Origin: Psychrobacter sp. HD31
Lineage (GTDB): Bacteria > Pseudomonadota > Gammaproteobacteria > Pseudomonadales > Moraxellaceae
Direction: 5' to 3'
Assembly (NCBI RefSeq): GCF_051097895.1
Contig: NZ_CP142525.1
Span: 1,680,001-1,712,000, forward strand
Length of the DNA stretch: 32,000 nucleotides
Part shown: positions 2,985-19,478 of the stretch, in pieces
Layout: each line of letters begins with the position of its first letter
How positions within the stretch are numbered: position 1 is the stretch's first letter
Program-made: the position numbers and the translations under genes
Notes under the pieces: generated by a model
What the model was told of the DNA's origin: nothing
Databases searched by the model: none
The model's input: only the letters and a program-made list of their open reading frames with translations

Positions 2985-4643
2985 ATGGCTCAATACATCT
3001 ACACCATGAACAATGTGTCAAAACTTGTTCCACCCAAGCGTGAAATCTTAAAAAACATTAACTTATCATTTTTTCCAGGTGCCAAAATTGGTGTTTTAGG
3101 TCTTAATGGTGCGGGTAAATCTACCTTGCTAAAAATTATGGCAGGCGTTGACAAAGAGTTCAGCGGTGAAGCACGCCCACAAGCAGGCATTAAAGTTGGC
3201 TATCTTGAGCAAGAACCACAATTAGACCCAGAAAAAGACGTGCGTGGCAATGTTGAAGATGGTGTGCGCGAAGCATTAGATGCATTAGACCGTCTGAATG
3301 AAATTTATGCAGAATATGCATTACCTGATGCTGATTTTGATAAGCTCGCTGAAGAGCAGGGCAAAATGGAAGACATCATCCAATCATGGGATGCGCATAA
3401 CCTAAACAATCAGCTAGAAAAAGCGGCTGATGCCTTGCGTTTACCAGCCTGGGATGCCGATGTTAGTAAGCTTTCTGGTGGTGAAAAACGCCGTGTGGCG
3501 CTTTGCCGTCTGCTTTTGTCTAAGCCAGACATGCTACTACTTGACGAGCCAACCAACCACTTGGATGCCGAATCTGTGGCATGGTTAGAGCATTTCTTAC
3601 ACGACTACAGTGGTACTATTGTAGCAATTACCCACGATAGATATTTCCTTGATAATGTTGCTGAGTGGATTTTGGAGCTTGACCGTGGTCATGGGTATCC
3701 ATATGAAGGTAACTATACTGAATGGCTGATACAAAAAGACAGACGTTTAGAAGAGCAGCAAAAGCAGGAAGAGTCATTTGCAAAAGCCTTGAAAAAAGAA
3801 TTGGAATGGGTGCGTAAAAACCAAAAAGGTCAGCAAGCCAAATCTAAATCTCGTATGCAACGCTTTGAAGAATTGAACTCTAAAGAATTCCAAGAGCGTA
3901 ACGAAACCGCTGAAATCTATATTCCACCTGGTCCTCGTTTGGGTAATAAAGTGGTTGAAGTTAATGGCATCTCTAAGTCATTTGGCGACCGTTTGTTATA
4001 TGAAAACCTATCATTTACTGTGCCACCTGCGGCGATTGTGGGTATCATTGGTGCCAACGGTGCTGGTAAAACCACCTTATTTAACATGATTACAGGCAAA
4101 GACAGCCCAGATACAGGGACGGTTGAGCTGGGTGAGAGTGTTAAGGTTGCCTATGTTGGTCAGGTGCGTGATGAGCTAGATGATAAAAAGACAGTGTGGG
4201 AAGAAGTCTCAGATGGTTTGGATATGATTACCATCGGTGATTATGAAACTTCTAGCCGTGCTTATATTGGTCGCTTTAACTTTAAAGGTCAAGATCAGCA
4301 AAAACACGTTGGGCAACTCTCTGGTGGTGAGCGTAACCGCTTGCAACTGGCAAAAACGCTTAAGCAAGGGGCAAATGTTATCTTGCTGGATGAACCGTCT
4401 AACGACTTGGACGTAGAAACGTTGCGTGCTTTGGAGGATGCAATTCAAGTATTCCCAGGTACAGTGATGTGTGTATCGCATGACCGCTGGTTCTTAGACC
4501 GTATTGCCACACATATTTTAGCCTTTGAAGACGAAGGTCCGATTTGGTTTGATGGTAACTACTCTGAGTTTGAGGCGTATCGTAAAAAACAGTTGGGAGC
4601 CGATGCCACTCCAAAACGAGTTAAACATAAAAAGATTTCTTAA
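2985..4643 (+). CDS. ettA: Energy-dependent translational throttle protein EttA (ABC-F ATPase)
   Basis: The N-terminus MAQYIYTMNNVSKLVPPKREILKNINLSFFPGAKIGVLGLNGAGKSTLL is typical of EttA/YjjK. It has two ABC cassettes (Walker A GLNGAGKST and GANGAGKTT; signatures LSGGEKRR and LSGGERNR; Walker B LLLDEPTNHLD and ILLDEPSNDLD) and no TM domain. Confidence 0.95.
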   Translation: MAQYIYTMNNVSKLVPPKREILKNINLSFFPGAKIGVLGLNGAGKSTLLKIMAGVDKEFSGEARPQAGIKVGYLEQEPQLDPEKDVRGNVEDGVREALDALDRLNEIYAEYALPDADFDKLAEEQGKMEDIIQSWDAHNLNNQLEKAADALRLPAWDADVSKLSGGEKRRVALCRLLLSKPDMLLLDEPTNHLDAESVAWLEHFLHDYSGTIVAITHDRYFLDNVAEWILELDRGHGYPYEGNYTEWLIQKDRRLEEQQKQEESFAKALKKELEWVRKNQKGQQAKSKSRMQRFEELNSKEFQERNETAEIYIPPGPRLGNKVVEVNGISKSFGDRLLYENLSFTVPPAAIVGIIGANGAGKTTLFNMITGKDSPDTGTVELGESVKVAYVGQVRDELDDKKTVWEEVSDGLDMITIGDYETSSRAYIGRFNFKGQDQQKHVGQLSGGERNRLQLAKTLKQGANVILLDEPSNDLDVETLRALEDAIQVFPGTVMCVSHDRWFLDRIATHILAFEDEGPIWFDGNYSEFEAYRKKQLGADATPKRVKHKKIS

Positions 4644-4646
4644 TAA

Positions 4647-4682
4647 AAAAAGCCCCTTCATACTGATGGGGCTTTATTTTTT
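4647..4682 (+). terminator. Rho-independent terminator of ettA
   Basis: AGCCCC (4651-4656), 11-nt loop, GGGGCT (4668-4673), followed by TTATTTTTT. Confidence 0.7.
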
Positions 4683-4688
4683 GCTAAC

Positions 4689-4717
4689 TTGCAGTCAAAA
4701 TCCATATATACTAGAAT
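4689..4717 (+). promoter_or_regulatory. Candidate sigma70 promoter for the small-membrane-protein/SSS operon
   Basis: TTGCAG (4689-4694), 17 nt spacer, TAGAAT (4712-4717). This would give a leader of about 65 nt containing a small hairpin CCCTAT/ATAGGG (4726-4748). Confidence 0.4.
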
Positions 4718-4790
4718 GTGAAACGCCCTATACGATAGACGGATAGGGGTTCACTGACAACATATCACCGCAAAACAGAGGAGTTCTGTC

Positions 4791-5117
4791 ATGCAATCCA
4801 CTAAAAAAGGCACATCAGGTGTCTTATTCGCTTGTGTCTTTTTACCACTTGCAACGTCACTTTTTGCCATATTTTCCACTCAAGTCGCATCAGAAACCCA
4901 AAGCCAAGTTATTGCGGGTATGCCTCAATTTTTGTGGTTATGGATAGCTTTGGCATTTTTGATGATGCTGGTTATTATTTTTAGTGCAATCAAACTATCA
5001 TTTAATGATTATGGTAATTTAGATTCAAATCAAACAAAATCAAAGCAGCAATCGGCAACGCCTTCATCGACTGCCTCCATAAATAGTAATACACAAAAGG
5101 AGGTTAACAATGGATAA
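4791..5117 (+). CDS. Small two-TM membrane protein with a Q/S/T/N-rich tail, translationally coupled to the downstream symporter (possible accessory subunit)
   Basis: GAGGAG RBS 7 nt before the ATG. Two hydrophobic segments (VLFACVFLPLATSLFAIF and FLWLWIALAFLMMLVIIFSAI). Its stop overlaps the next start (ATGGATAA, 5110-5117). I recognise no family motif. Confidence 0.6.
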   Translation: MQSTKKGTSGVLFACVFLPLATSLFAIFSTQVASETQSQVIAGMPQFLWLWIALAFLMMLVIIFSAIKLSFNDYGNLDSNQTKSKQQSATPSSTASINSNTQKEVNNG

Positions 5118-10654: not shown

Positions 10655-12421
10655 TTAGTCCAAGCTCCCAGACCCTAAATCCAATCTATCAACGTTACCT
10701 ATACCTGCCCATTCATGATGATGGCTAACCACTACCAGTAAGCCATCTTTTTGATGTTCACGCACCGCCTGCCAAACGTGTGTGCGAGTAGTAGCATCTA
10801 ACCCAGCAAAGGGTTCATCAAGCAGTAATACTTTACGTGGTTTTAATAACAACCTTGCCAATGCAATACGGCGAGCTTGCCCACCAGAAACAGCGGTTCC
10901 GTATTCACCCAAACGAGTTTGCAAACCTTGTGGCTGAGATTTAACCCAGCTGGCAAGTCCTACTTTTTCTAGCACATCCATTAGCGCATCATCGCTGGCC
11001 TTAGGGTTACCGAGTCTTAAATTATTTGCTAAAGTTTGATCAAAAATATCTAGTTGTTGCCCCAAATAGCCAAGTTGGTCTGCCCAGTTGTAACTTTGCC
11101 ATGGATGACCGTTTAGTAAAATCTCACCAGATTGAGGGTCAAGTTCATTAGACAGAGTTTGCAATAACGTAGATTTACCACAGCCAGAAGCGCCCGTTAC
11201 AATTAAAGGTGTACCTGAATGGATGCTTGCATTGACATTGGTTGCGCCTACGATGGCGGTTGGCATTTTTGCATTAACTTGTTTTAACGTTGCAATTAAA
11301 TTTTGCTCTGGCAACGCAATGGCGTTTTTAACCGAGTCGTGGGTTGTGCTGGTGGCAAGATGCTGCTCATCCAGCAGTTCGTTTAGGCGTTGTTTTGATG
11401 CAATAGAATCACCCAATGCCAAGTAGTTTTGCCCTAACGGGATAACAATCTCTTGAATACCAAACAACCCTAAAATCACTGCCAATAACATAGGTACGCT
11501 AATAGGCAGCAGGCTATTTTGTGCAATATAATCTGTAAAACTTGGTGCAATTTGCTTATAAAATAAGGCAACACTCAATAAAATGACAACCATTAACAGA
11601 TAATATGACCATTGCATCAGCAGCATAGTGCGGCTACGACTCTTTTGTGCTTGCCAATCTAGGGCATGTATGTGGTCATCATGTTTGATAAAGTCTTGTG
11701 TTTGATTGCGCCACTGTTTCCAAAGAAGCAATTGAGTAATAATTGTAAGCGGGGCTAGCAAACTTTGACGACGTTGCTCGGTTGTGTGTGCAACTTGTTT
11801 AGCATGGCTAATACCACGTTTTGCCATGATGGCAGGTATGGCAAGTGCAATAATCATGAGTGCAACAATAATCAACTTCCATACAACTGATAACGTGGGT
11901 AATGCAAATAGCATAAATCCGGTGAGTGTTAAGGTTAAGACGATAGCCATAAACCAGGGCGAAACCACCCAAAGAGGGAACCCATCAAGCGTGCTAATAT
12001 CACTCACTAATCGGTGCATTTGTTGCGAGGATTGCAGTGTTTGGTGCTGGCTATTTAGCGGTTTACCAGCAAGTGTGCGGAAAAACTTTAAGCGTAACTC
12101 TTTTAATAGGCTAAAAATAGCATTGTGTGAGACCATGAGCTCGCCATAACGCCCAGCAGTTCGTGCCATTGCCAACATACGGATAATGGCAGCTGGCATC
12201 ATATAGTTAAAGGTATGTGAGCCAAGTGCAACCAGCCCTGCTAAAGCGGTTGCGGTTAAAAACCAACCAGAAACCATTAGCAAGCCAACAACAGAAAACA
12301 CAGTAACTAACCCTAATAGCCATGCAATAACCCATAAATCAAAAGACGGTTTAATGAGGTCTCTTAATCTAAACGTTTCGTATTGCTTACTTTCTAGTCG
12401 ATTTTTGTTTTGGTTGGTCAT
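10655..12421 (-). CDS. cydC: ABC transporter CydC (cytochrome bd biogenesis / thiol reductant exporter subunit)
   Basis: N-terminal TMD with SGWFLTATALAGL...FNYMMPAAIIRMLAMARTAGRYGELMVSHNA, collinear with E. coli CydC as I recall it. The NBD has GASGCGKSTL, VSGGQARRIALA and VLLLDEPF. Confidence 0.85.
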   Translation of the reverse strand: MTNQNKNRLESKQYETFRLRDLIKPSFDLWVIAWLLGLVTVFSVVGLLMVSGWFLTATALAGLVALGSHTFNYMMPAAIIRMLAMARTAGRYGELMVSHNAIFSLLKELRLKFFRTLAGKPLNSQHQTLQSSQQMHRLVSDISTLDGFPLWVVSPWFMAIVLTLTLTGFMLFALPTLSVVWKLIIVALMIIALAIPAIMAKRGISHAKQVAHTTEQRRQSLLAPLTIITQLLLWKQWRNQTQDFIKHDDHIHALDWQAQKSRSRTMLLMQWSYYLLMVVILLSVALFYKQIAPSFTDYIAQNSLLPISVPMLLAVILGLFGIQEIVIPLGQNYLALGDSIASKQRLNELLDEQHLATSTTHDSVKNAIALPEQNLIATLKQVNAKMPTAIVGATNVNASIHSGTPLIVTGASGCGKSTLLQTLSNELDPQSGEILLNGHPWQSYNWADQLGYLGQQLDIFDQTLANNLRLGNPKASDDALMDVLEKVGLASWVKSQPQGLQTRLGEYGTAVSGGQARRIALARLLLKPRKVLLLDEPFAGLDATTRTHVWQAVREHQKDGLLVVVSHHHEWAGIGNVDRLDLGSGSLD

Positions 12422-12431
12422 TGCGTTGTTT

Positions 12432-13004
12432 TTACCTTGCTAGTTTTTGTACTAATTTGGTTTTGGCATTTACCCATTCTTCTTTTGTCATGCTATACAT
12501 AACCGTATCTCGTATCGTGCCATCACGCCTTAGGGTATGACCACGGATTGTACCGTCTTTTGTTGCCCCAAGTCTTTCTATTGCTTTTTGCGAGCGTATA
12601 TTTAAGTTATCGGTTCGCCACCCAACCGTTTGCCAGCCTAAAGTTTCAAATGCATGAGTCAAAAGCAGTAATTTGCAGGTGGTGTTGACATGGCTACGCC
12701 AATAAGACTGACCATAAAATGTATAACCAATTTCTAACCTTTTTGGTTTTGGCAAAATATCATGATAACTGGTAGAGCCAATCAGCTTATTTGTGGTTTT
12801 ATCAATAACTGCAAAAGCCAATCTGTCGTTGGTATTTAGTGCAGTGTTGATATAGCTTAGGCTATCCTCTGGTTTTGGAGCAGAGGTTACAATAAGCTCC
12901 CAGAGGCTACCATCAGTAACCAGCTCAGCTAAAGCATCGGCATGGGCTGTGGTTAATGGTTCTAATCTAATATGAGTATTTTGTAAGACGACGGGCGCGA
13001 TCAT
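12432..13004 (-). CDS. GNAT N-acetyltransferase (RimJ/RimL-like, Acetyltransf_3 type) embedded between cydD and cydC
   Basis: 190 aa. IRLEPLTTAHADAL...LEIGYTFYGQSYWRSHVNTTCKLLLLTHAFETLGWQTVGWRTDNLNIRSQKAIERLGATKDGTIRGH...RDTVMYSMTKEEW is the classic COG1670-type GNAT pattern. Its ATG overlaps the cydD stop (ATGA, 13001-13004). Its stop lies 10 nt before the cydC ATG. Confidence 0.8.
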   Translation of the reverse strand: MIAPVVLQNTHIRLEPLTTAHADALAELVTDGSLWELIVTSAPKPEDSLSYINTALNTNDRLAFAVIDKTTNKLIGSTSYHDILPKPKRLEIGYTFYGQSYWRSHVNTTCKLLLLTHAFETLGWQTVGWRTDNLNIRSQKAIERLGATKDGTIRGHTLRRDGTIRDTVMYSMTKEEWVNAKTKLVQKLAR

Positions 13005-14869
13005 GATAATGTCTCCTTTTTGACATTATCGTGCGTCTTTTGGTTATCTTCTATTTGGATAACTCTGTCTAACCAATTAAGTTGTTCGACTGCATGGGTA
13101 ATCCAAATAACGGTTTTGCCTTCACTAACTTTGTTAAGCAAGGCATGGATACGTTCGGCAGTATCTGGGTCTAGGTGTTCGGTTGGTTCATCTAATAGCC
13201 ATAACTGACTATCTCTTAATAGCAACTGCGCTAGCCCCAAACGCTGTTGCTGACCACCAGATAATCCACGCCCACGCTCGCCAAGTTGGGTGTTAATGCC
13301 ATTGGGTAGGCGTTCAATTAACTCATATAAATCAACGGCTTTAAGTACTTCAATCAGCTCATCATCGCTTGCAGCAGGGTTAGCAAGGCGAAGGTTGTCA
13401 GCAATGCTCATGGGTAATAGGGCAACTTGTTGCGCCAAGTAACCAATATGCTGCCTAAAGTTTTGTATGTCTATTTGTTGATGGTCAACATCGTTAATAG
13501 TAATGAGACCTTCGTAATTTGCAAAACCCATTAAGGCTTGAATAAGGCTAGATTTTCCGCTGCCACTTTCACCAACCAAGGCAATGCGTTCACCTGATTT
13601 GATAGCAAAACTAATGGGTGCTAAACGTGTGCGGATAATGGGTTTAGGGTTTGTTTTTACGTTAGTTTTTTTGTTTTTTCGTTTGATTTTTTTGTTTGAT
13701 TTTTTTGCGTCTTCATTTGCTAAGTTTTCAGGCTCAGGTAAATTTGTCTCTGGCAAAACAGTGCTGTAAATAGCTAAGTCAGTTAGCGCAATAGTTGGTG
13801 CTAGTTGGTAGTCGATAGATTGGTTTTGTGTTTGGTTATGTTGCTGTGTTTGTGCCAGCTCATCTGCTTTTTTTAGCAAGGGCAATAAACTTTGTACAGC
13901 GCCTTCAGCCTGCGATTGGGCATGGTAATCGGCACCAAGTTGTCGTAATGGCAAATAAAACTCGGGGGTTAATAGTAATATAAATAATGCCCCAAAATAT
14001 TGTACAGGCACATGGCCTTTATCCCAAGGTAAAATGCCCATTAAACCAAAGCCTAAATAAACAGCGACTAAAGCAATGCAGAGTGCTGCTAAAAATTCAA
14101 GGACAGCACCATTTAAAAAGGCAATTTTTAGTACATCCATTGTACGGCGGCGGTACTGCTCACTTGCATGGTCTAGGTCGTCTTCGGCAATGTGAGTGGC
14201 TTGCATCCTTTTTAGTGTTGTCATGCCACGCACCCAATCTAAAAAACGACCACTTAGCTGTGAAAGTGCTAAAAATTGTTCGGCGCTTTTTCTAGCAGTC
14301 ATGTTGCCGATTAAAATCATAAAGATAGGAACAAAAGGTGCGGTGACCAACAAAATGCCCGCGGCAAGTAAGCTTTGTGAGGCAACCGCTAACAACAATA
14401 TAATCGGGGTACTGGCTGCGACTTTTTTTTGTACGCTAAAGCGGCTAATAAAGCCATCAAGTGCATCAGTTTGTTCAATCACTTGGCTAGAAATACTACC
14501 ATCACTACCAAATTGGCTACGTGCTGCGCCTAAGGTTGCTAACGCTGTCATTAAACGTTTGCGCAGATCGGCTCGTACTGACAAACTTGCTTTACTACTA
14601 ATCAGCTCTCGCACATATTGCAATAATGGGCGGAGGATAAAACAGGCAAGTAGCCAGCCAATCCATTGCCACAGTACATTAATATCTAATGGTTGCCCTG
14701 TAAACTGTTGGTTTAACCATTGACTAAAGATGTGCGCCAAGATCCAAGCCTGAAAAACAAAGACAAGCGTAGAAATCACCATTAATATCCACGCAATGCG
14801 TAGTTTAGGCTGTACTGGCCTGATTAGGCTATTTAAAAATTGTTTTTCGTTGTTAGAAAGCTTTGCCAT
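13001..14869 (-). CDS. cydD: ABC transporter CydD (cytochrome bd biogenesis / thiol reductant exporter subunit), with a Lys-rich NBD insertion
   Basis: The TMD blocks FLALSQLSGRFLDWVRGMTTLK, RRRTMDVLKIAFLNGAVLEFLAALCIALVAVYLGF and PEFYLPLRQLGADYHAQSQAEGA are collinear with E. coli CydD as I recall it. The NBD has GESGSGKSSL, LSGGQQQRLGLA and LWLLDEPT. Confidence 0.85.
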   Translation of the reverse strand: MAKLSNNEKQFLNSLIRPVQPKLRIAWILMVISTLVFVFQAWILAHIFSQWLNQQFTGQPLDINVLWQWIGWLLACFILRPLLQYVRELISSKASLSVRADLRKRLMTALATLGAARSQFGSDGSISSQVIEQTDALDGFISRFSVQKKVAASTPIILLLAVASQSLLAAGILLVTAPFVPIFMILIGNMTARKSAEQFLALSQLSGRFLDWVRGMTTLKRMQATHIAEDDLDHASEQYRRRTMDVLKIAFLNGAVLEFLAALCIALVAVYLGFGLMGILPWDKGHVPVQYFGALFILLLTPEFYLPLRQLGADYHAQSQAEGAVQSLLPLLKKADELAQTQQHNQTQNQSIDYQLAPTIALTDLAIYSTVLPETNLPEPENLANEDAKKSNKKIKRKNKKTNVKTNPKPIIRTRLAPISFAIKSGERIALVGESGSGKSSLIQALMGFANYEGLITINDVDHQQIDIQNFRQHIGYLAQQVALLPMSIADNLRLANPAASDDELIEVLKAVDLYELIERLPNGINTQLGERGRGLSGGQQQRLGLAQLLLRDSQLWLLDEPTEHLDPDTAERIHALLNKVSEGKTVIWITHAVEQLNWLDRVIQIEDNQKTHDNVKKETLS

Positions 14870-14960: not shown

Positions 14961-15019
14961 ACGCGTCATACTAAATCATTGATAAAGTGATTTTAGTTAA
15001 ACAACCACATAAATTTTAC

Positions 15020-15050
15020 AACATTATAGTTAATTTTTTTATATAATGTT
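15020..15050. promoter_or_regulatory. Inverted repeat AACATTATA-N13-TATAATGTT overlapping a TATAAT upstream of the permease operon
   Basis: Perfect 9-bp arms (15020-15028 and 15042-15050). The right arm contains TATAAT (15042-15047), about 30 nt before the ATG at 15078. Confidence 0.3.
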
Positions 15051-15077
15051 AAAAAATATAATTTGAAGGTGTTTATC

Positions 15078-16049
15078 ATGTGGGGTTTATTAGCAAAAAT
15101 TCAAAAAAACTTAACAACAGCAATCCCTATACTTATGATTTTGGGGGTTATTACAGGGGCAATGGTAGATGCTTCGGTTTTAAAAAACTTAATTGTTCCG
15201 TTAACTTTGTTGATGGTATACCCCATGATGGTAAACCTAAAGTTTCAGGAGCTATATAAAATAAACGGCTTTAAACTACAGTTAAGTGCGCTCGGCATTA
15301 ACTTTGTTTTAATACCAATGATAGCGGTTGTGTTAAATTGGCTATTTTTAAAGGATATGCCTTATGCTGCGCTTGGTTTGTTACTTGCGTCATTAGTCCC
15401 GACAAGTGGCATGACCATTTCTTGGACGGGTTTTGCAAAAGGTAATTTATCGGCAGCAATTAAAATGACAGTGATTGGGCTGATTGTTGGTTCATTATTA
15501 ACACCAATTTATGCCAATGTGATTTTGGGGCAAAGTATCAGTATCCCGATGGGTAAAGTTTTTAAATCGATTGTTTTTGTGGTGTTTGTGCCAATGTTGC
15601 TTGGTTTTATAACCAAAAAATGGCTTGTAAGCCGCCATGGACTTGAATACTATCAAAAAAATCTGGCAAAAAAGTTTCCGCCAATCTCAACTTTAGGGGT
15701 ATTGGGTATTGTTTTTGTCGCAATGGCACTAAATGCAAAATCTATTTTGGCAGATCCCACGTCATTGATTCAATATTTGATACCTTTAATCTTGTTGTAT
15801 TTAATCAACTTTGCTATTAGTACGTTGCTTGGTAAGTTGTTTTTTGACCGTGGTGATGCGATTGCCTTGGTTTATGGCACAGTGATGAGAAATTTGTCTA
15901 TTGCACTTGCAATTGCAATGACAGCATTTGGAGAAGAAGGTGCCCAAATAGCGATTATCATTGCTTTGGCGTATATCATCCAAGTACAGGCAGCCGCTTG
16001 GTATGTGAAATATACCGATAACGTGTTTGGGGTATATAAACCGCATTAA
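15078..16049 (+). CDS. ACR3/BASS-superfamily (bile acid:Na+ symporter / arsenical-resistance-3-like) permease, cysteine-free; substrate unknown
   Basis: Polytopic, about 10 TM. The blocks PLTLLMVYPMMVNLKFQEL and LASLVPTSGMTISWTGFAKGNLSAA align by eye with the ACR3 blocks (...MYPP..KV... / ...LARCIAMV..WN.LAKGD). I prefer the ATG at 15078 (GAAGG 8 nt upstream) over the track's TTG at 15063. Confidence 0.72.
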   Translation: MWGLLAKIQKNLTTAIPILMILGVITGAMVDASVLKNLIVPLTLLMVYPMMVNLKFQELYKINGFKLQLSALGINFVLIPMIAVVLNWLFLKDMPYAALGLLLASLVPTSGMTISWTGFAKGNLSAAIKMTVIGLIVGSLLTPIYANVILGQSISIPMGKVFKSIVFVVFVPMLLGFITKKWLVSRHGLEYYQKNLAKKFPPISTLGVLGIVFVAMALNAKSILADPTSLIQYLIPLILLYLINFAISTLLGKLFFDRGDAIALVYGTVMRNLSIALAIAMTAFGEEGAQIAIIIALAYIIQVQAAAWYVKYTDNVFGVYKPH

Positions 16050-16069
16050 TGACAAAAAAAGGATGGTAT

Positions 16070-16378
16070 ATGATTATTGTACTGACATCACAAAATAAAA
16101 AGCACATTACCGCCCATGCGGGTAAATGCCGAAAGTTTTGGCGATATGAGATAACAAACAATCAGGTTGTTACTCAGCAGTTGATTGAAGTTGCAAAAGA
16201 AGACAGCTTTAGTCAATCTGGTGCGGTATTAGAACAGCTCATGCCAATGGATTTATTTGTATCATCTGGTATGGGTGATGGGTTAAAAAATAGAATGCAG
16301 GCGTTTGACGTAGCGGTACAGCTGACTGAAATGGTAGAAGTTGATGTGTTTATACAAAACTTTTGTCAGCAAGAATAA
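16070..16378 (+). CDS. NifX/NifB-like (dinitrogenase Fe-Mo cofactor biosynthesis domain, PF02579-type) small protein
   Basis: MIIVLTSQNKKHITAHAGKCRKFWRYEI...DLFVSSGMGDGLKNRMQAFDVAV follows the family pattern (MKIAV.S.....v..HFG.a..F.iyev ... vi.g.iG.ga...L...gI.V). I prefer the ATG at 16070 (AAGGA 8 nt upstream) over the track start at 16049. Confidence 0.62.
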   Translation: MIIVLTSQNKKHITAHAGKCRKFWRYEITNNQVVTQQLIEVAKEDSFSQSGAVLEQLMPMDLFVSSGMGDGLKNRMQAFDVAVQLTEMVEVDVFIQNFCQQE

Positions 16379-16409
16379 TACAGTTTTTAAACGATTAAGG
16401 AAATAAAAA

Positions 16410-16751
16410 ATGGGGTTGGTATCTGTCATAAAAAATGGTATTTCAGCAATGCTAGCACGTGAACCCTTGCCAGAAAATGCGGTTTTGCTAGATGTACGCA
16501 ATCATAAAGAGTTTGCAAAAGGTATTGTTGAAAATTCTATATGTATCCCTGTTGGTGAATTACAGGCTAAGCAAACGGAGCTGGTGCAGCAATGTAAGTT
16601 AGATACGCCGATTGTTGTTTATTGTGCTTCGGGTGGGCGTGCAGTTAGAGCAAAAAAGTTATTAATTAAGATGGGATACAAACAGGTGGTCAATGGTGGG
16701 GGTATTTATCATGTTGCAAAAAAGCTGAGCAAACCAATTGTGAGTTGCTAA
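16410..16751 (+). CDS. Single-domain rhodanese (sulfurtransferase, GlpE/PspE-like)
   Basis: LLDVRNHKEFAKGIVENSICIP and the active-site loop VVYCASGGRAVRA (a 6-residue C-X4-R loop, the sulfurtransferase type). AAGGAA RBS 8 nt upstream. Confidence 0.85.
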   Translation: MGLVSVIKNGISAMLAREPLPENAVLLDVRNHKEFAKGIVENSICIPVGELQAKQTELVQQCKLDTPIVVYCASGGRAVRAKKLLIKMGYKQVVNGGGIYHVAKKLSKPIVSC

Positions 16752-16801
16752 GCAAACATGACGCGGGTTAAACAATTAATGTTGTAAAAATAATGATATA
16801 A

Positions 16802-16827
16802 AAACGCCAAACGATGGTTTGGCGTTT
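16802..16827. terminator. Bidirectional terminator between the rhodanese gene (+) and the FKBP gene (-)
   Basis: AAACGCCAAAC (16802-16812), loop GATG, GTTTGGCGTTT (16817-16827). This is a perfect 11-bp stem whose A/T-rich arm ends can act as U tracts on either strand. Confidence 0.7.
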
Positions 16828-17657: not shown

Positions 17658-18017
17658 TTTTGCTTCAAGGGTCTATATTAAAAAAGGATACTTTTAACTG
17701 TTTAATATTTAAATATCGCCTTTAAGATAAGTAAGATGACATAGCAAAACATAGCCATCTTTTGGTATTTTTAACGTCTTAGCATACAATGTAGTAAATG
17801 TGTAAATTTATGTTAATATAATTACATATTTATACATTTATATTGCTTTAAGTTAAGGTTTCTAACTTTATTAACTGGATGTTTTGGGTTACAGTTAAAG
17901 TAATAGTTTTAATAAAACTAATCATTATTAAATGATGGAATAAAAATAGGGCAGTCATACTGGTAAGTATAGGTTAGCTGCTATTTAATTTAAATGTGAA
18001 TTTAATTGGAGGATTCC

Positions 18018-19478
18018 ATGAATATGAATAATATATTTGCATGGTTCAATCAGAATTTAAATGGCCCAGCAGGCTCGGTCATTGGTGCAATTTTGTTTTT
18101 TGTCATTGGTTGGATTATTGCCTTAATTTTGGCAGCAGTTGTACGTAAAATGCTTGGTAGTGTTAATGTTAACCAGCGTATGAACTCTGCGACAAATCAG
18201 CAATACGATATTGAAGGCATTGTTGCCAAGATTGTATTTTGGTTTGCCTTTATGCTTGCCATTGCAACGGCTCTAGAGCAACTAAACTTACAATCAATCT
18301 CTGCGCCATTTGCAAACATGATTAACCAAGTGTTGTCATTTGTACCAAGCATTATTGGTGCAGCGGCAATTGGCTTAATTGGTTGGGTTATTGCAACGGT
18401 TATCCGTAACCTAATTACGGTGGCGTTATCAAAAACAACAATGGATGAGAAGCTTACAGCACAAGCGGGCGTACAGCCAATGAGCAACACCATTGCTGAT
18501 GTTATCTATTGGTTTATCCTTTTATTGGTACTTACTTTGGTACTAAACCAACTTGGTATGACCAGCCTACTTGAGCCGTTAAATGGCATGATTGCTAAGA
18601 TTACTGGTTTCTTACCAAATGCTTTATTAGCTGCGTTCACCTTCTTTGTTGGTTATATTGCTGCTAAAATTTTACGTGGCATCACTACTAACTTAGTAGC
18701 GGCAACAAACGTACAGTCGCTTGTTTCTAAAGCGGGTGTGAGTGAAAAAACAAGCCTACCAAACTTAGCGGGTTCTGCTGTATTCTTAGTGGTTGTACTA
18801 ACTGCGTTGGTCATGGCACTAAACACGCTTAAAGTTGACGTTATTGCGCGCCCAGCTACCAACATGATTGATAAAATGATGGGTGCAATCCCTAATATCT
18901 TGATGGCAGTTGTTGTGTTAACAGCGTTCTACTTCATTAGTAAACTAATTGCAGACCTAGTGAAAGGTTTATTGGTAAATACAGAAGTTAATAGCTTGCC
19001 TTCTAAACTTGGTATCATTTCTGACGATGAATGTAGCTGCCAGTTAACTGATTTGATTGGTAATGCGATTGTATTCTTTGCTATGCTGTTTGGTGTGATT
19101 TTGGCTGCTGATTTGCTAGGCTTTGATCAGATTAGTGAAATGGTTACTATGTTCATTAACTTTGGTGCAGATGTTATCCTTGGTGCAATCATCATGGTTA
19201 TCGGCTTTTGGTTGGCTAACTTGGTTGCTGGTTTTGTTAGTAACTCTGAACAAGGCTCAACCTTCTTAGCAAACACAGTTCGTGTCCTTATCATGGGCTT
19301 GGTAATTGCGATGGGTCTTAAAGCAATGGGTATTGCAGACTCAATTGTAAACTTAGCATTTGGTTTAACACTTGGTGCGGTTGCAGTGGCATTTGCTTTA
19401 TCGTTTGGTCTTGGTGGTCAAGAGGCAGCAGCTCGCTATCTTCGTAACCTACAAGATAAAATGGATAACGATAAGTAA
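18018..19478 (+). CDS. Polytopic membrane protein made of five tandem conserved-TM-helix (PF05552-like) modules; no MscS channel domain
   Basis: A GGAGGA RBS at 18008-18013 supports the ATG at 18018 (or 18024) rather than the track's TTG at 18006. Five two-helix modules of about 91 aa recur, anchored on VIGWIIA, LIGWVIA, FVGYIAA, TAFYFIS and VIGFWLA. Confidence 0.7.
   Translation: MNMNNIFAWFNQNLNGPAGSVIGAILFFVIGWIIALILAAVVRKMLGSVNVNQRMNSATNQQYDIEGIVAKIVFWFAFMLAIATALEQLNLQSISAPFANMINQVLSFVPSIIGAAAIGLIGWVIATVIRNLITVALSKTTMDEKLTAQAGVQPMSNTIADVIYWFILLLVLTLVLNQLGMTSLLEPLNGMIAKITGFLPNALLAAFTFFVGYIAAKILRGITTNLVAATNVQSLVSKAGVSEKTSLPNLAGSAVFLVVVLTALVMALNTLKVDVIARPATNMIDKMMGAIPNILMAVVVLTAFYFISKLIADLVKGLLVNTEVNSLPSKLGIISDDECSCQLTDLIGNAIVFFAMLFGVILAADLLGFDQISEMVTMFINFGADVILGAIIMVIGFWLANLVAGFVSNSEQGSTFLANTVRVLIMGLVIAMGLKAMGIADSIVNLAFGLTLGAVAVAFALSFGLGGQEAAARYLRNLQDKMDNDK

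Follow-up and report, generated by a model that had tools for sequence, protein, structure and literature searches.

Three adjoining genes in a stretch of 32,000 nucleotides (nt) from Psychrobacter sp. HD31 (contig NZ_CP142525.1, positions 1,680,001 to 1,712,000, here called the window) encode a membrane permease, a small NifX-like protein and a rhodanese, and raise the question of what these three products do together. A sequence-only reading had proposed an anion uptake and processing unit for which it knew no characterised example. In this study, we report a computational analysis of the three products and of the gene neighbourhoods of their relatives, comprising about 170 loci on the permease and NifX-like sides, and consider it somewhat probable that the operon is a sulfane-sulfur handling module, in which the permease carries a sulfane-sulfur anion and works with a cytoplasmic sulfurtransferase. 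The operon is made up of the following features, the genes being taken from the open reading frame (ORF) listing and direct reading.

15078-16049, plus strand: permease gene, ATG start, 323 amino acids (aa)
16070-16378, plus strand: NifX-like protein gene, ATG start, 102 aa
16410-16751, plus strand: rhodanese gene, 113 aa
16802-16827: stem-loop terminator with an 11-bp stem, between the convergent rhodanese (plus) and FKBP (minus) genes, found by terminator scan

The start of the permease was placed at ATG 15078 and not at TTG 15063 on the basis of homologue N-termini of the form MW(K/G/Q)xL, and that of the NifX-like protein at ATG 16070 and not at ATG 16049 on the basis of homologue N-termini of the form M(K/N/I)I(A/V)(I/L)TSQNK. 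The permease and NifX-like genes are separated by 20 nt and the NifX-like and rhodanese genes by 31 nt, a purine-rich Shine-Dalgarno sequence (GAAGG, AAAGGA and AAGGAAA, respectively) precedes each start, and the terminator scan found no terminator-like site in the gaps among the three genes. The site at 16802-16827 was the only plus-strand terminator in the scan; it is common to the operon and the FKBP-type isomerase gene, and its T-run is better for the minus-strand FKBP gene than for the plus-strand rhodanese gene. The earlier description of three same-strand genes with short gaps, their own Shine-Dalgarno sequences and one terminator was thus borne out by the ORF listing, direct reading and scan.

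The permease matched the Pfam SBF model PF01758 with 106.5 bits (gathering score 24.3) over positions 4-189 of the 191 in the model, and the Pfam SBF_like model with 75.8 bits. Against the ACR3 model TIGR00832 it reached 102.5 bits (E 2.8e-29), below the equivalog cutoff of 282.8. Among 8000 candidates scored, 4525 permease homologues were found at E<=1e-10, and the best 120 of these ranged in identity from 99% to ~47%, mostly 59-64%. These 120 came from cyanobacteria, Desulfobacterota, Desulfuromonadota, Pasteurellaceae, Neisseria, Bacteroidota, Cloacimonadota and others, with archaea added by the genome-scan loci; the subfamily keeps ~60% identity across phyla. Source annotations for the family read 'arsenic resistance protein', 'arsenite transporter' or 'bile acid:sodium symporter'.

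Three bona fide ACR3 proteins from plasmid ars operons served as the alignment reference; their identity to the permease was 23-29%, aligned over residues 5-285. The ACR3 motif RCIAMV aligned with PTSGMTI (LPTSGMTI in the window protein), placing Ser110 at the position of the Cys, VEVPV aligned with IQVQA, placing Gln302 at that of the Glu, and NNFE aligned with RNLS, introducing Arg271. Ser110, Arg271 and Gln302 were invariant in all 201 permease-family sequences; Ser110 falls within one search pattern for 80 of these, the Genome Taxonomy Database (GTDB) loci described below, and is invariant too in the 120 independently found proteins. Direct reading confirmed that the window permease contains no Cys, as had been claimed, and Cys is likewise entirely missing from 100 of the 201 sequences, the family having no conserved Cys. 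In the Acr3 of C. glutamicum, the Cys and the Glu of ACR3 are reportedly essential. Judged by these alignments, the permease appears to have an ACR3-like fold but to lie outside the ACR3 arsenite carriers, and it belongs to an uncharacterised, strongly conserved subfamily of the BART superfamily with the SBF fold. An invariant Arg in the second crossover helix, together with the lack of a conserved Cys, would fit a non-covalent anion site.

A profile search of the PDB returned ASBT_Yf and ASBT_NM as the nearest solved structures (E ~1e-10), the alignments spanning just residues 38-231 or 62-285, with low identity; a search with only the C-terminal half of the protein gave no PDB match. Because ASBT homologues are nearest, an elevator-type mechanism with two crossover helices is expected, from which the substrate does not follow. 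Some permease relatives carry C-terminal CBS-pair or USP domains (P0040, P0048, P0073, P0088, P0104 and L026 6001-7554), which would imply nucleotide-dependent regulation of the carrier in these proteins.

In order to place the permease in its genetic context, neighbourhoods were compared in 80 loci from GTDB species representatives encoding permeases 55-63% identical to that of the window, whose own species was not among the representatives matched. Rhodanese was the commonest Pfam domain among the immediate permease neighbours (13 upstream, 5 downstream), followed by Pyr_redox_2, DUF302, thioredoxin, DUF6858 and the ArsR-type HTH. Using a rhodanese hidden Markov model, a rhodanese-domain ORF was located within 500 nt of the permease in 17 of these 80 loci (18 of 81 when the window is counted), in 16 cases on the same strand, and just 3 rhodanese ORFs lay beyond 1.5 kb in ~700 kb of flanks. 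Rhodanese density is ~50-fold higher near the permease than further out in the flanks of these loci. A rhodanese domain is present in 19/80 loci overall. Several of the adjacent ORFs are CoADR-rhodanese fusions of 556-566 aa. The association was seen in cyanobacteria, Desulfuromonadota, Gammaproteobacteria, Bacteroidota, Lentisphaerae and Leptospirales, with gene orders and rhodanese types that vary.

Neighbours within 3 kb of the permease were counted by phmmer seed searches. DUF302 was the most frequent (26/80 loci), often immediately upstream on the same strand, followed by CoADR-like proteins (14/80), SQR-like proteins (12/80), PetC-like Rieske proteins (11/80), ArsR (8/80), DUF6858 (5/80), methyltransferases (4/80), DsrE (2/80) and TauE (2/80); an ETHE1/Blh-like dioxygenase was also among the recurrent neighbours. 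At least one sulfur-type neighbour was present in 47 of the 80 loci. TauE, DsrE and rhodanese-YgaP_TM passed Pfam in an annotation check, and the proteins tentatively labelled SQR-like scored 109-111 bits against the type III SQR model (cutoff 525). Cyanobacterial relatives combine the permease with SQR-like, DUF302, ArsR and PetC-like Rieske genes, Pasteurellaceae isolates with YgaP-like transmembrane (TM) and DsrE-like proteins, and Neisseria isolates with DUF302 as the sole partner. According to the summary in PMC5061849, DUF302 is SuoC of the Synechocystis suoRSCT operon, which is induced by sulfide and arsenite; the domain also occurs in sox clusters of Acidithiobacillia (PMC5037610).

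Arsenic genes were searched for near the same 80 loci with seeds for ArsC of both types, ArsH, ArsD and ArsA, and essentially none were found: ArsC in 1/80 (weak), ArsH in 0/80 and ArsD in 0/80. All three bona fide ACR3 genes adjoin arsR plus arsC or arsH. The model score, the Ser and Gln replacements and the lack of ars context together uphold the doubt that had been cast on a plain arsenite-efflux annotation.

The product of the third gene matched PF00581 with 56.1 bits (gathering score 22.2), and direct reading placed its six-residue active-site loop, CASGGR, within VVYCASGGRAV; YCASGGRAV is kept in the rhodanese orthologues of loci L081 and L088. Its scores fell below the cutoffs of both the PspE model NF007627 (48.7 vs 102) and the GlpE model NF001195 (32.1 vs 102). 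No signal peptide was seen when the N-terminus was read directly, and the protein is therefore presumably cytoplasmic. A single-domain rhodanese of the sulfurtransferase type is predicted, in agreement with the sequence-only reading.

For the NifX-like protein, the PF02579 assignment proposed earlier did not hold at the level of the Pfam cutoff (21.3 bits, gathering score 26.3) but was recovered at the level of the fold. The score against TIGR02663, the model for NifX proper, was 20.2 bits (cutoff 112). The PF02579 label is precomputed on the 71% identical ortholog and on other relatives, and the homologue in Rivularia locus L043 scored 46.2 bits. A PDB search with the single sequence returned noise only, and a profile built from the protein and six relatives matched PH0822 and NafY, weakly. 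The AlphaFold2 (AF2) model had a predicted local distance difference test score (pLDDT) of 91.3, and Foldseek matched it to PH0822 with E=4e-6 and a query TM-score (TMq) of 0.84. The top 14 Foldseek matches were all of the PF02579 family, including PH0822, TM1816, MJ0327, NifX (9ian_F), NafY (1p90), MTH1175 and the orange protein, ORP (2wfb), the first unrelated fold appearing at rank 15; TMq ranged from 0.72 to 0.84 for PH0822, TM1816, MJ0327, NifX, NafY and ORP. On the evidence of the model, the protein has the three-layer alpha/beta fold of NifX, NafY, ORP and MTH1175, of the PF02579 type.

The subfamily is marked by the motif SQNKxxxTxHxGKCxKFW, in which His16 and Cys20 fall on the strand that usually binds ligands; the position of Cys20 is Ser in PH0822 (HFGRSRYF vs HxGKCxKFW). 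Conservation of the Cys among metagenome relatives was built into the search pattern and is not independent evidence. A His-rich C-terminal tail (e.g. HEHRHNHQHRHRHVH) is present in 45 of 80 metagenome relatives, and the window protein is without it. Such tails suggest that the relatives carrying them may bind metal.

Neighbourhoods of the NifX-like subfamily were compared in those 80 metagenome loci (L097-L176). DUF6858 lies directly downstream on the same strand in 17/80, and this uncharacterised family appears to be a further member of the guild formed by the permease and the NifX-like protein. Sigma54 activators with a PAS domain were found in 13/80 loci, those of L110 and of Syntrophotalea carbinolica (L183, outside this set) having a Cys-rich sensor segment. 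Methyltransferases were found in 12/80 loci, plus 10 TehB-like ones, MBL proteins in 12/80, CMD/AhpD-like proteins in 10/80 and rhodaneses in 10/80. In the closest NifX-like group (56% identity), locus L100 encodes two Blh-type dioxygenases, one of which ends at the contig edge, two rhodaneses and TauE; the match of its MBL protein to Blh, over the dioxygenase half, scored 375 bits. The NifX-like subfamily thus sits, independently of the permease, in sulfur islands of persulfide dioxygenase (PDO), rhodanese and TauE genes.

Cytochrome bd subunit II is encoded near the NifX-like gene in 10 of these 80 loci. Cytochrome bd is a sulfide-tolerant oxidase, and its adjacency to NifX-like genes may be a meaningful link. 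In L139 (222-4381) and the 9 others, the NifX-like gene is downstream of the cytochrome bd genes (cydA, cydB and a Rieske-like gene); the window operon adjoins cydDC.

Whether the three genes travel together was assessed from the nearest relatives outwards. In the nearest (contigs L081-L083), the same three genes occur in the same order with a CydD ortholog again adjoining, at product identities of 84% for the permease, 71% for the NifX-like protein and 58% for the rhodanese. Contig L081 also encodes, at 3665-4819, a 384-aa polytopic membrane protein without a Pfam match between cydD and the permease, which is missing from the window. Among permease relatives of 74-76% identity, one is followed by a rhodanese and then by an S-adenosylmethionine (SAM) methyltransferase (P0005), another has a divergent TehB/TPMT-like methyltransferase (P0003), and a third (L084, 75%) has neither rhodanese nor NifX-like partner. 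A 67% identical permease is preceded by DUF302 as its sole partner, and one of 63% identity (L185) has unrelated neighbours.

Further away, a PF02579 gene was present within 3 kb of the permease in 4 of the 80 permease loci, and the permease in 1 of the 80 NifX-subfamily loci (L172, with NifX-like, rhodanese and permease genes directly in that order). In Rivularia (L043), the NifX-like gene is followed by rhodanese, DUF4079 and permease genes, within an 11-kb island that holds SQR-like, NifX-like, rhodanese, permease, DsrE, ArsR, TauE, rhodanese-YgaP and MBL dioxygenase genes. All three families are therefore found side by side in Pseudomonadota and, in the cyanobacterial arrangement of L043 and L172, in the unrelated Cyanobacteriota, with a related arrangement in S. 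carbinolica (L183, 165-5972). There, the sigma54-PAS regulator with the Cys-rich sensor segment separates a NifX-like/DUF5320/CGGC operon from a CoADR-rhodanese fusion and the permease; the NifX-like profiles constructed in the analysis did not detect the PF02579 protein of this locus. The layout is similar to that of the divergent orp operons under sigma54 control in Desulfovibrio.

Co-occurrence of the trio across taxa, which the sequence-only reading had named as a check, was found for the nearest relative and for L043 and L172, but the counts of 4/80 and 1/80 elsewhere, and NifX-like homologues of ~51% identity that stand alone, led to rejection of a fixed trio. The three genes form a loose guild rather than a fixed cassette; the recurring pair is the permease with a rhodanese or DUF302, and the NifX-like protein is a sporadic, optional partner of the permease. 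A co-evolving rhodanese subfamily was also considered and rejected, the rhodaneses adjoining different permeases being only distantly related: that of the window fails to detect the rhodanese of L043 at E<0.01.

A role in sulfur metabolism is suggested because the recurrent neighbours in both permease and NifX-like loci are sulfur genes, and carriage of a sulfur anion would fit three kinds of pairing of the permease: with SQR-like proteins (makers of polysulfide inside the cell), with cytoplasmic CoADR-rhodaneses (consumers) and with lone rhodaneses, DsrE or DUF302. Under the sulfane-sulfur reading, the permease would be a secondary carrier of the ASBT/ACR3 (BART) fold whose cargo across the inner membrane is a small inorganic anion of sulfur, most likely thiosulfate or polysulfide/hydropolysulfide, as a substrate or product of the rhodanese. 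In an import mode, the rhodanese would take the sulfane sulfur from the anion as a Cys persulfide; in an export mode, it would load sulfane sulfur onto sulfite and so make thiosulfate for export. Export is as compatible with the data as uptake, so that the neighbourhoods uphold the likeness to sulfur relay drawn in the sequence-only reading, but not its direction of uptake. The NifX-like protein would be an optional cytoplasmic accessory that probably binds sulfur or metal-sulfide species, its subfamily-specific Cys/His pair lying in the pocket that accommodates metal-sulfur clusters in related proteins; candidate ligands are a persulfide or polysulfide on Cys20, or an ORP-like metal-sulfide species.

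Several points weigh against this reading. The proposed substrate is guilt by association, there being no substrate-specific signature, and no SQR, PDO or regulator adjoins the window operon. Sulfur-type neighbours are missing from 33 of the 80 permease relatives, and these 80 are the best-scoring of 583 loci, with an abundance of cyanobacteria and Desulfobacterota among them; the 'CoADR-like' and 'SQR-like' counts may take in other flavoprotein disulfide reductases. The rhodaneses adjoining the permeases are not orthologous, which makes the partnership generic rather than co-evolved. Additionally, the recurrent TehB/TPMT-like and SAM methyltransferases and the His-rich tails fit selenium, tellurium or metals equally well.

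A wider form of the proposal is put forward tentatively, as possible but doubtful: that the permease subfamily is a missing inner-membrane transporter of sulfane-sulfur anions, and that the HxGKCxKFW branch of NifX-like proteins is a new kind of carrier that holds sulfane sulfur or a metal-sulfide species in the cytoplasm. The export mode would then serve SQR-based sulfide oxidation, and the import mode CoADR-rhodanese reductases and rhodaneses.

Four other explanations were weighed against a sulfane-sulfur module. A selenium or tellurium oxyanion module, in which the permease would move selenite, tellurite or their reduced forms, the rhodanese would form a perselenide and methyltransferases would volatilise the product, is unlikely. 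Rhodaneses bind selenium as perselenide, and those studied here weakly resemble selenoprotein-type rhodaneses in NCBIfam; TehB/TPMT-like or Methyltransf_11 genes adjoin the closest permease relatives (P0003, P0005), the methyltransferases near NifX-like genes are those counted above (12/80 and 10/80 loci), and thioredoxin and TrxR-like neighbours are present. The other markers point to sulfur pathways (SQR-like proteins, Blh-type persulfide dioxygenase, TauE, DsrE and the SuoC-type DUF302), the window operon itself is without a methyltransferase, and selD, selA and ybbB were not noticed in any locus, though no formal search for them was made.

We also regard as rather improbable that there is no functional unit at all, the permease being a BASS-type organic-anion carrier that is merely adjacent and the statistics reflecting a shared sulfidic habitat or sampling bias. 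The permease relatives without sulfur-type neighbours, the unrelated surroundings at L084 and L185, the lone NifX-like homologues and the mutual non-orthology of the adjacent rhodaneses would all be expected from such an account. It is opposed by the short gaps without an internal terminator, by the gene order kept in the 84% ortholog, by the rhodanese enrichment beside the permease relative to the outer flanks, and by recurrence of the association over many phyla with differing gene orders and rhodanese types.

Less probable still is a thiometallate or metal-sulfur module of the ORP type, in which the NifX-like protein would hold Mo-, W- or Cu-sulfide, the rhodanese would give sulfur and the permease would move molybdate, tungstate or a thiometallate. 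Consistent with it are the fold shared with NifX, NafY and the D. gigas orange protein, a weak NCBIfam match to MrpORP, the His-rich tails of the relatives, DUF134 neighbours in 3 loci, a Fusobacteriales permease (L024) inside a cluster of an Mrp-NifX fusion, a NifX-like protein and a CooC-like ATPase, and the sigma54 regulator between the two operons of S. carbinolica. The tail is absent from the window protein, however, the surroundings showed no mod, moa or moe genes, the PF02579 and permease genes seldom meet in either set of loci, and genes for sulfide oxidation and sulfurtransferases dominate the neighbours. Classic arsenite or antimonite efflux, with the other two genes incidental, is very improbable: the homology to ACR3, the arsenite names in source annotations, the ArsR/SmtB-family regulators near 8-10/80 relatives and the response of the Synechocystis suo operon (SQR, DUF302) both to sulfide and to arsenite, according to the summary in PMC5061849, are outweighed by the score far under the ACR3 cutoff, the invariant Ser and Gln in place of the RCIAM Cys and VEVP Glu, the Cys-free half of the family and the neighbourhoods lacking the ars partners of true ACR3 genes, and the ArsR family includes sulfide and persulfide sensors too.

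The surroundings of the operon in the window add three further features.

15010-15060, no strand: inverted repeat, rich in A+T and perfect over a 9-bp core (15020-15028 / 15042-15050), that overlaps TATAAT-like hexamers between cydD and the permease gene
13001-14869, minus strand: cydD, 528 bits, exceeding the cutoff
10655-12421, minus strand: cydC-like gene, 303.6 bits, slightly below the cutoff of 329

On its 5' side, the operon faces the divergent cydD (TIGR02857) across a 208-nt spacer of 78% A+T, which contains the inverted repeat with the core AACATTATA/TATAATGTT, perfect over 9 bp. The repeat had been described as part of a promoter region. A perfect inverted repeat of at least 9 bp arose in 164 of 1000 dinucleotide shuffles of the spacer, and the spacer comparison showed that the repeat is not present in the matching, unrelated spacer of the 84% identical operon. 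The repeat was therefore rejected as an operator or regulatory element, and is probably just promoter-region sequence.

The remaining window genes are housekeeping ones (EttA, PlsB, TesB, CydDC, HisA and NqrA-F), the G+C content is 39%, and no nif genes occur within the 32-kb window, as had been stated. The identity of NqrA, 77-78% to Psychrobacter and 71% to Moraxella, puts the host within Moraxellaceae, close to Psychrobacter. A GNAT acetyltransferase gene (12432-13004, minus strand) lies between cydD and the cydC-like gene with a 4-nt overlap with the cydD stop, and CydD has a Lys-rich insert of ~60 aa (…KKSNKKIKRKNKKTNVKTNPK…) before its ATP-binding domain. A 490-aa membrane protein (18006-19478, plus strand) contains five 'mechanosensitive channel conserved TM helix' repeats (PF05552); it matched the NCBIfam model 'msc' with 297 bits, and Pfam reported no canonical MscS channel domain in it.

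To our knowledge, thiosulfate and polysulfide are known to cross the cytoplasmic membrane only by way of YeeE/YedE-type carriers and CysPUWA. The transport route is unclear for SQR/PDO sulfide oxidation in heterotrophs and cyanobacteria and for cytoplasmic persulfide/polysulfide reductases, and the widespread permease family, paired with rhodanese, DUF302, DsrE or CoADR-rhodanese, is a concrete transporter candidate. The claim that a characterised example is lacking agrees with a full-text literature search, which returned no paper on the permease family or its sulfur link, absence there not being proof. If true, the proposal would correct thousands of 'arsenite transporter' annotations and provide an initial lead to the function of DUF302 and, in aerobes, of NifX-fold proteins unconnected with nitrogenase.

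Compared with known systems, the permease resembles ACR3 (TIGR00832; TCDB 2.A.59) in superfamily, length, ~10 TM helices and the P-x-x-x-G and N-x-x-x-A-x-A framework of both crossover segments. It differs in scoring only one third of the family cutoff, in having Ser for Cys, Gln for Glu and RNLS for NNFE, and in the missing ars gene context. With the BASS carriers ASBT_NM (3ZUX) and ASBT_Yf (4N7W) of PF01758, it shares a passing SBF score and they are its nearest structures; the relationship is nevertheless distant, the permease subfamily being conserved across phyla far above its identity to any BASS protein, and having inorganic-sulfur genes rather than bile-acid or organic-acid genes as neighbours.

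The NifX-like protein is like NifX, NafY, ORP and MTH1175 (PF02579) in its predicted fold and in being a stand-alone protein of ~100 aa, and unlike them in scoring under the Pfam and NifX cutoffs, in the absence of nif genes, in the motif HxGKCxKFW and in occurring in aerobes beside sulfur-detoxification genes. With PspE/GlpE and the CoADR-rhodanese persulfide reductases (Npsr, CoAPR), the third protein shares the rhodanese domain and the six-residue Cys loop, and permease relatives are paired with CoADR-rhodanese fusions; the window rhodanese is an equivalog of neither PspE nor GlpE and lacks the PspE signal peptide. The literature searched described no transporter partner for PspE/GlpE or the CoADR-rhodanese enzymes. 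In the suoRSCT operon of Synechocystis pSYSM (SQR, the ArsR-type SuoR, the DUF302 protein SuoC and the ChrA-like SuoT), the transporter slot is the one that the permease takes in cyanobacterial relatives. SuoT is a chromate-transporter homologue reported, according to the summary in PMC5061849, as an arsenite importer; it has no SBF fold, and the window operon is without SQR, DUF302 and ArsR.

The uptake systems YeeE/YeeD (TsuA/TsuB) for thiosulfate and YedE1E2/PmpAB for zero-valent sulfur would be analogous in combining a sulfane-sulfur carrier with a small cytoplasmic sulfur-transfer protein. YeeE/YedE-type genes lie in rhodanese, PDO, SQR and TauE neighbourhoods, and their transport relies on conserved Cys (PMC10812762). 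The fold of these carriers is unrelated to that of the permease, whose family is without a conserved Cys, and which is partnered by a rhodanese, DUF302 or DsrE instead of a TusA-like protein, no TusA-like gene being present in the operon. The operon therefore falls outside the YeeE/YeeD type, and the likeness appears to be a functional analogy only. Taken together, the parts of the operon come from known superfamilies, and their logic would resemble that of YeeE/YeeD and of suo/cst/BigR-type clusters.

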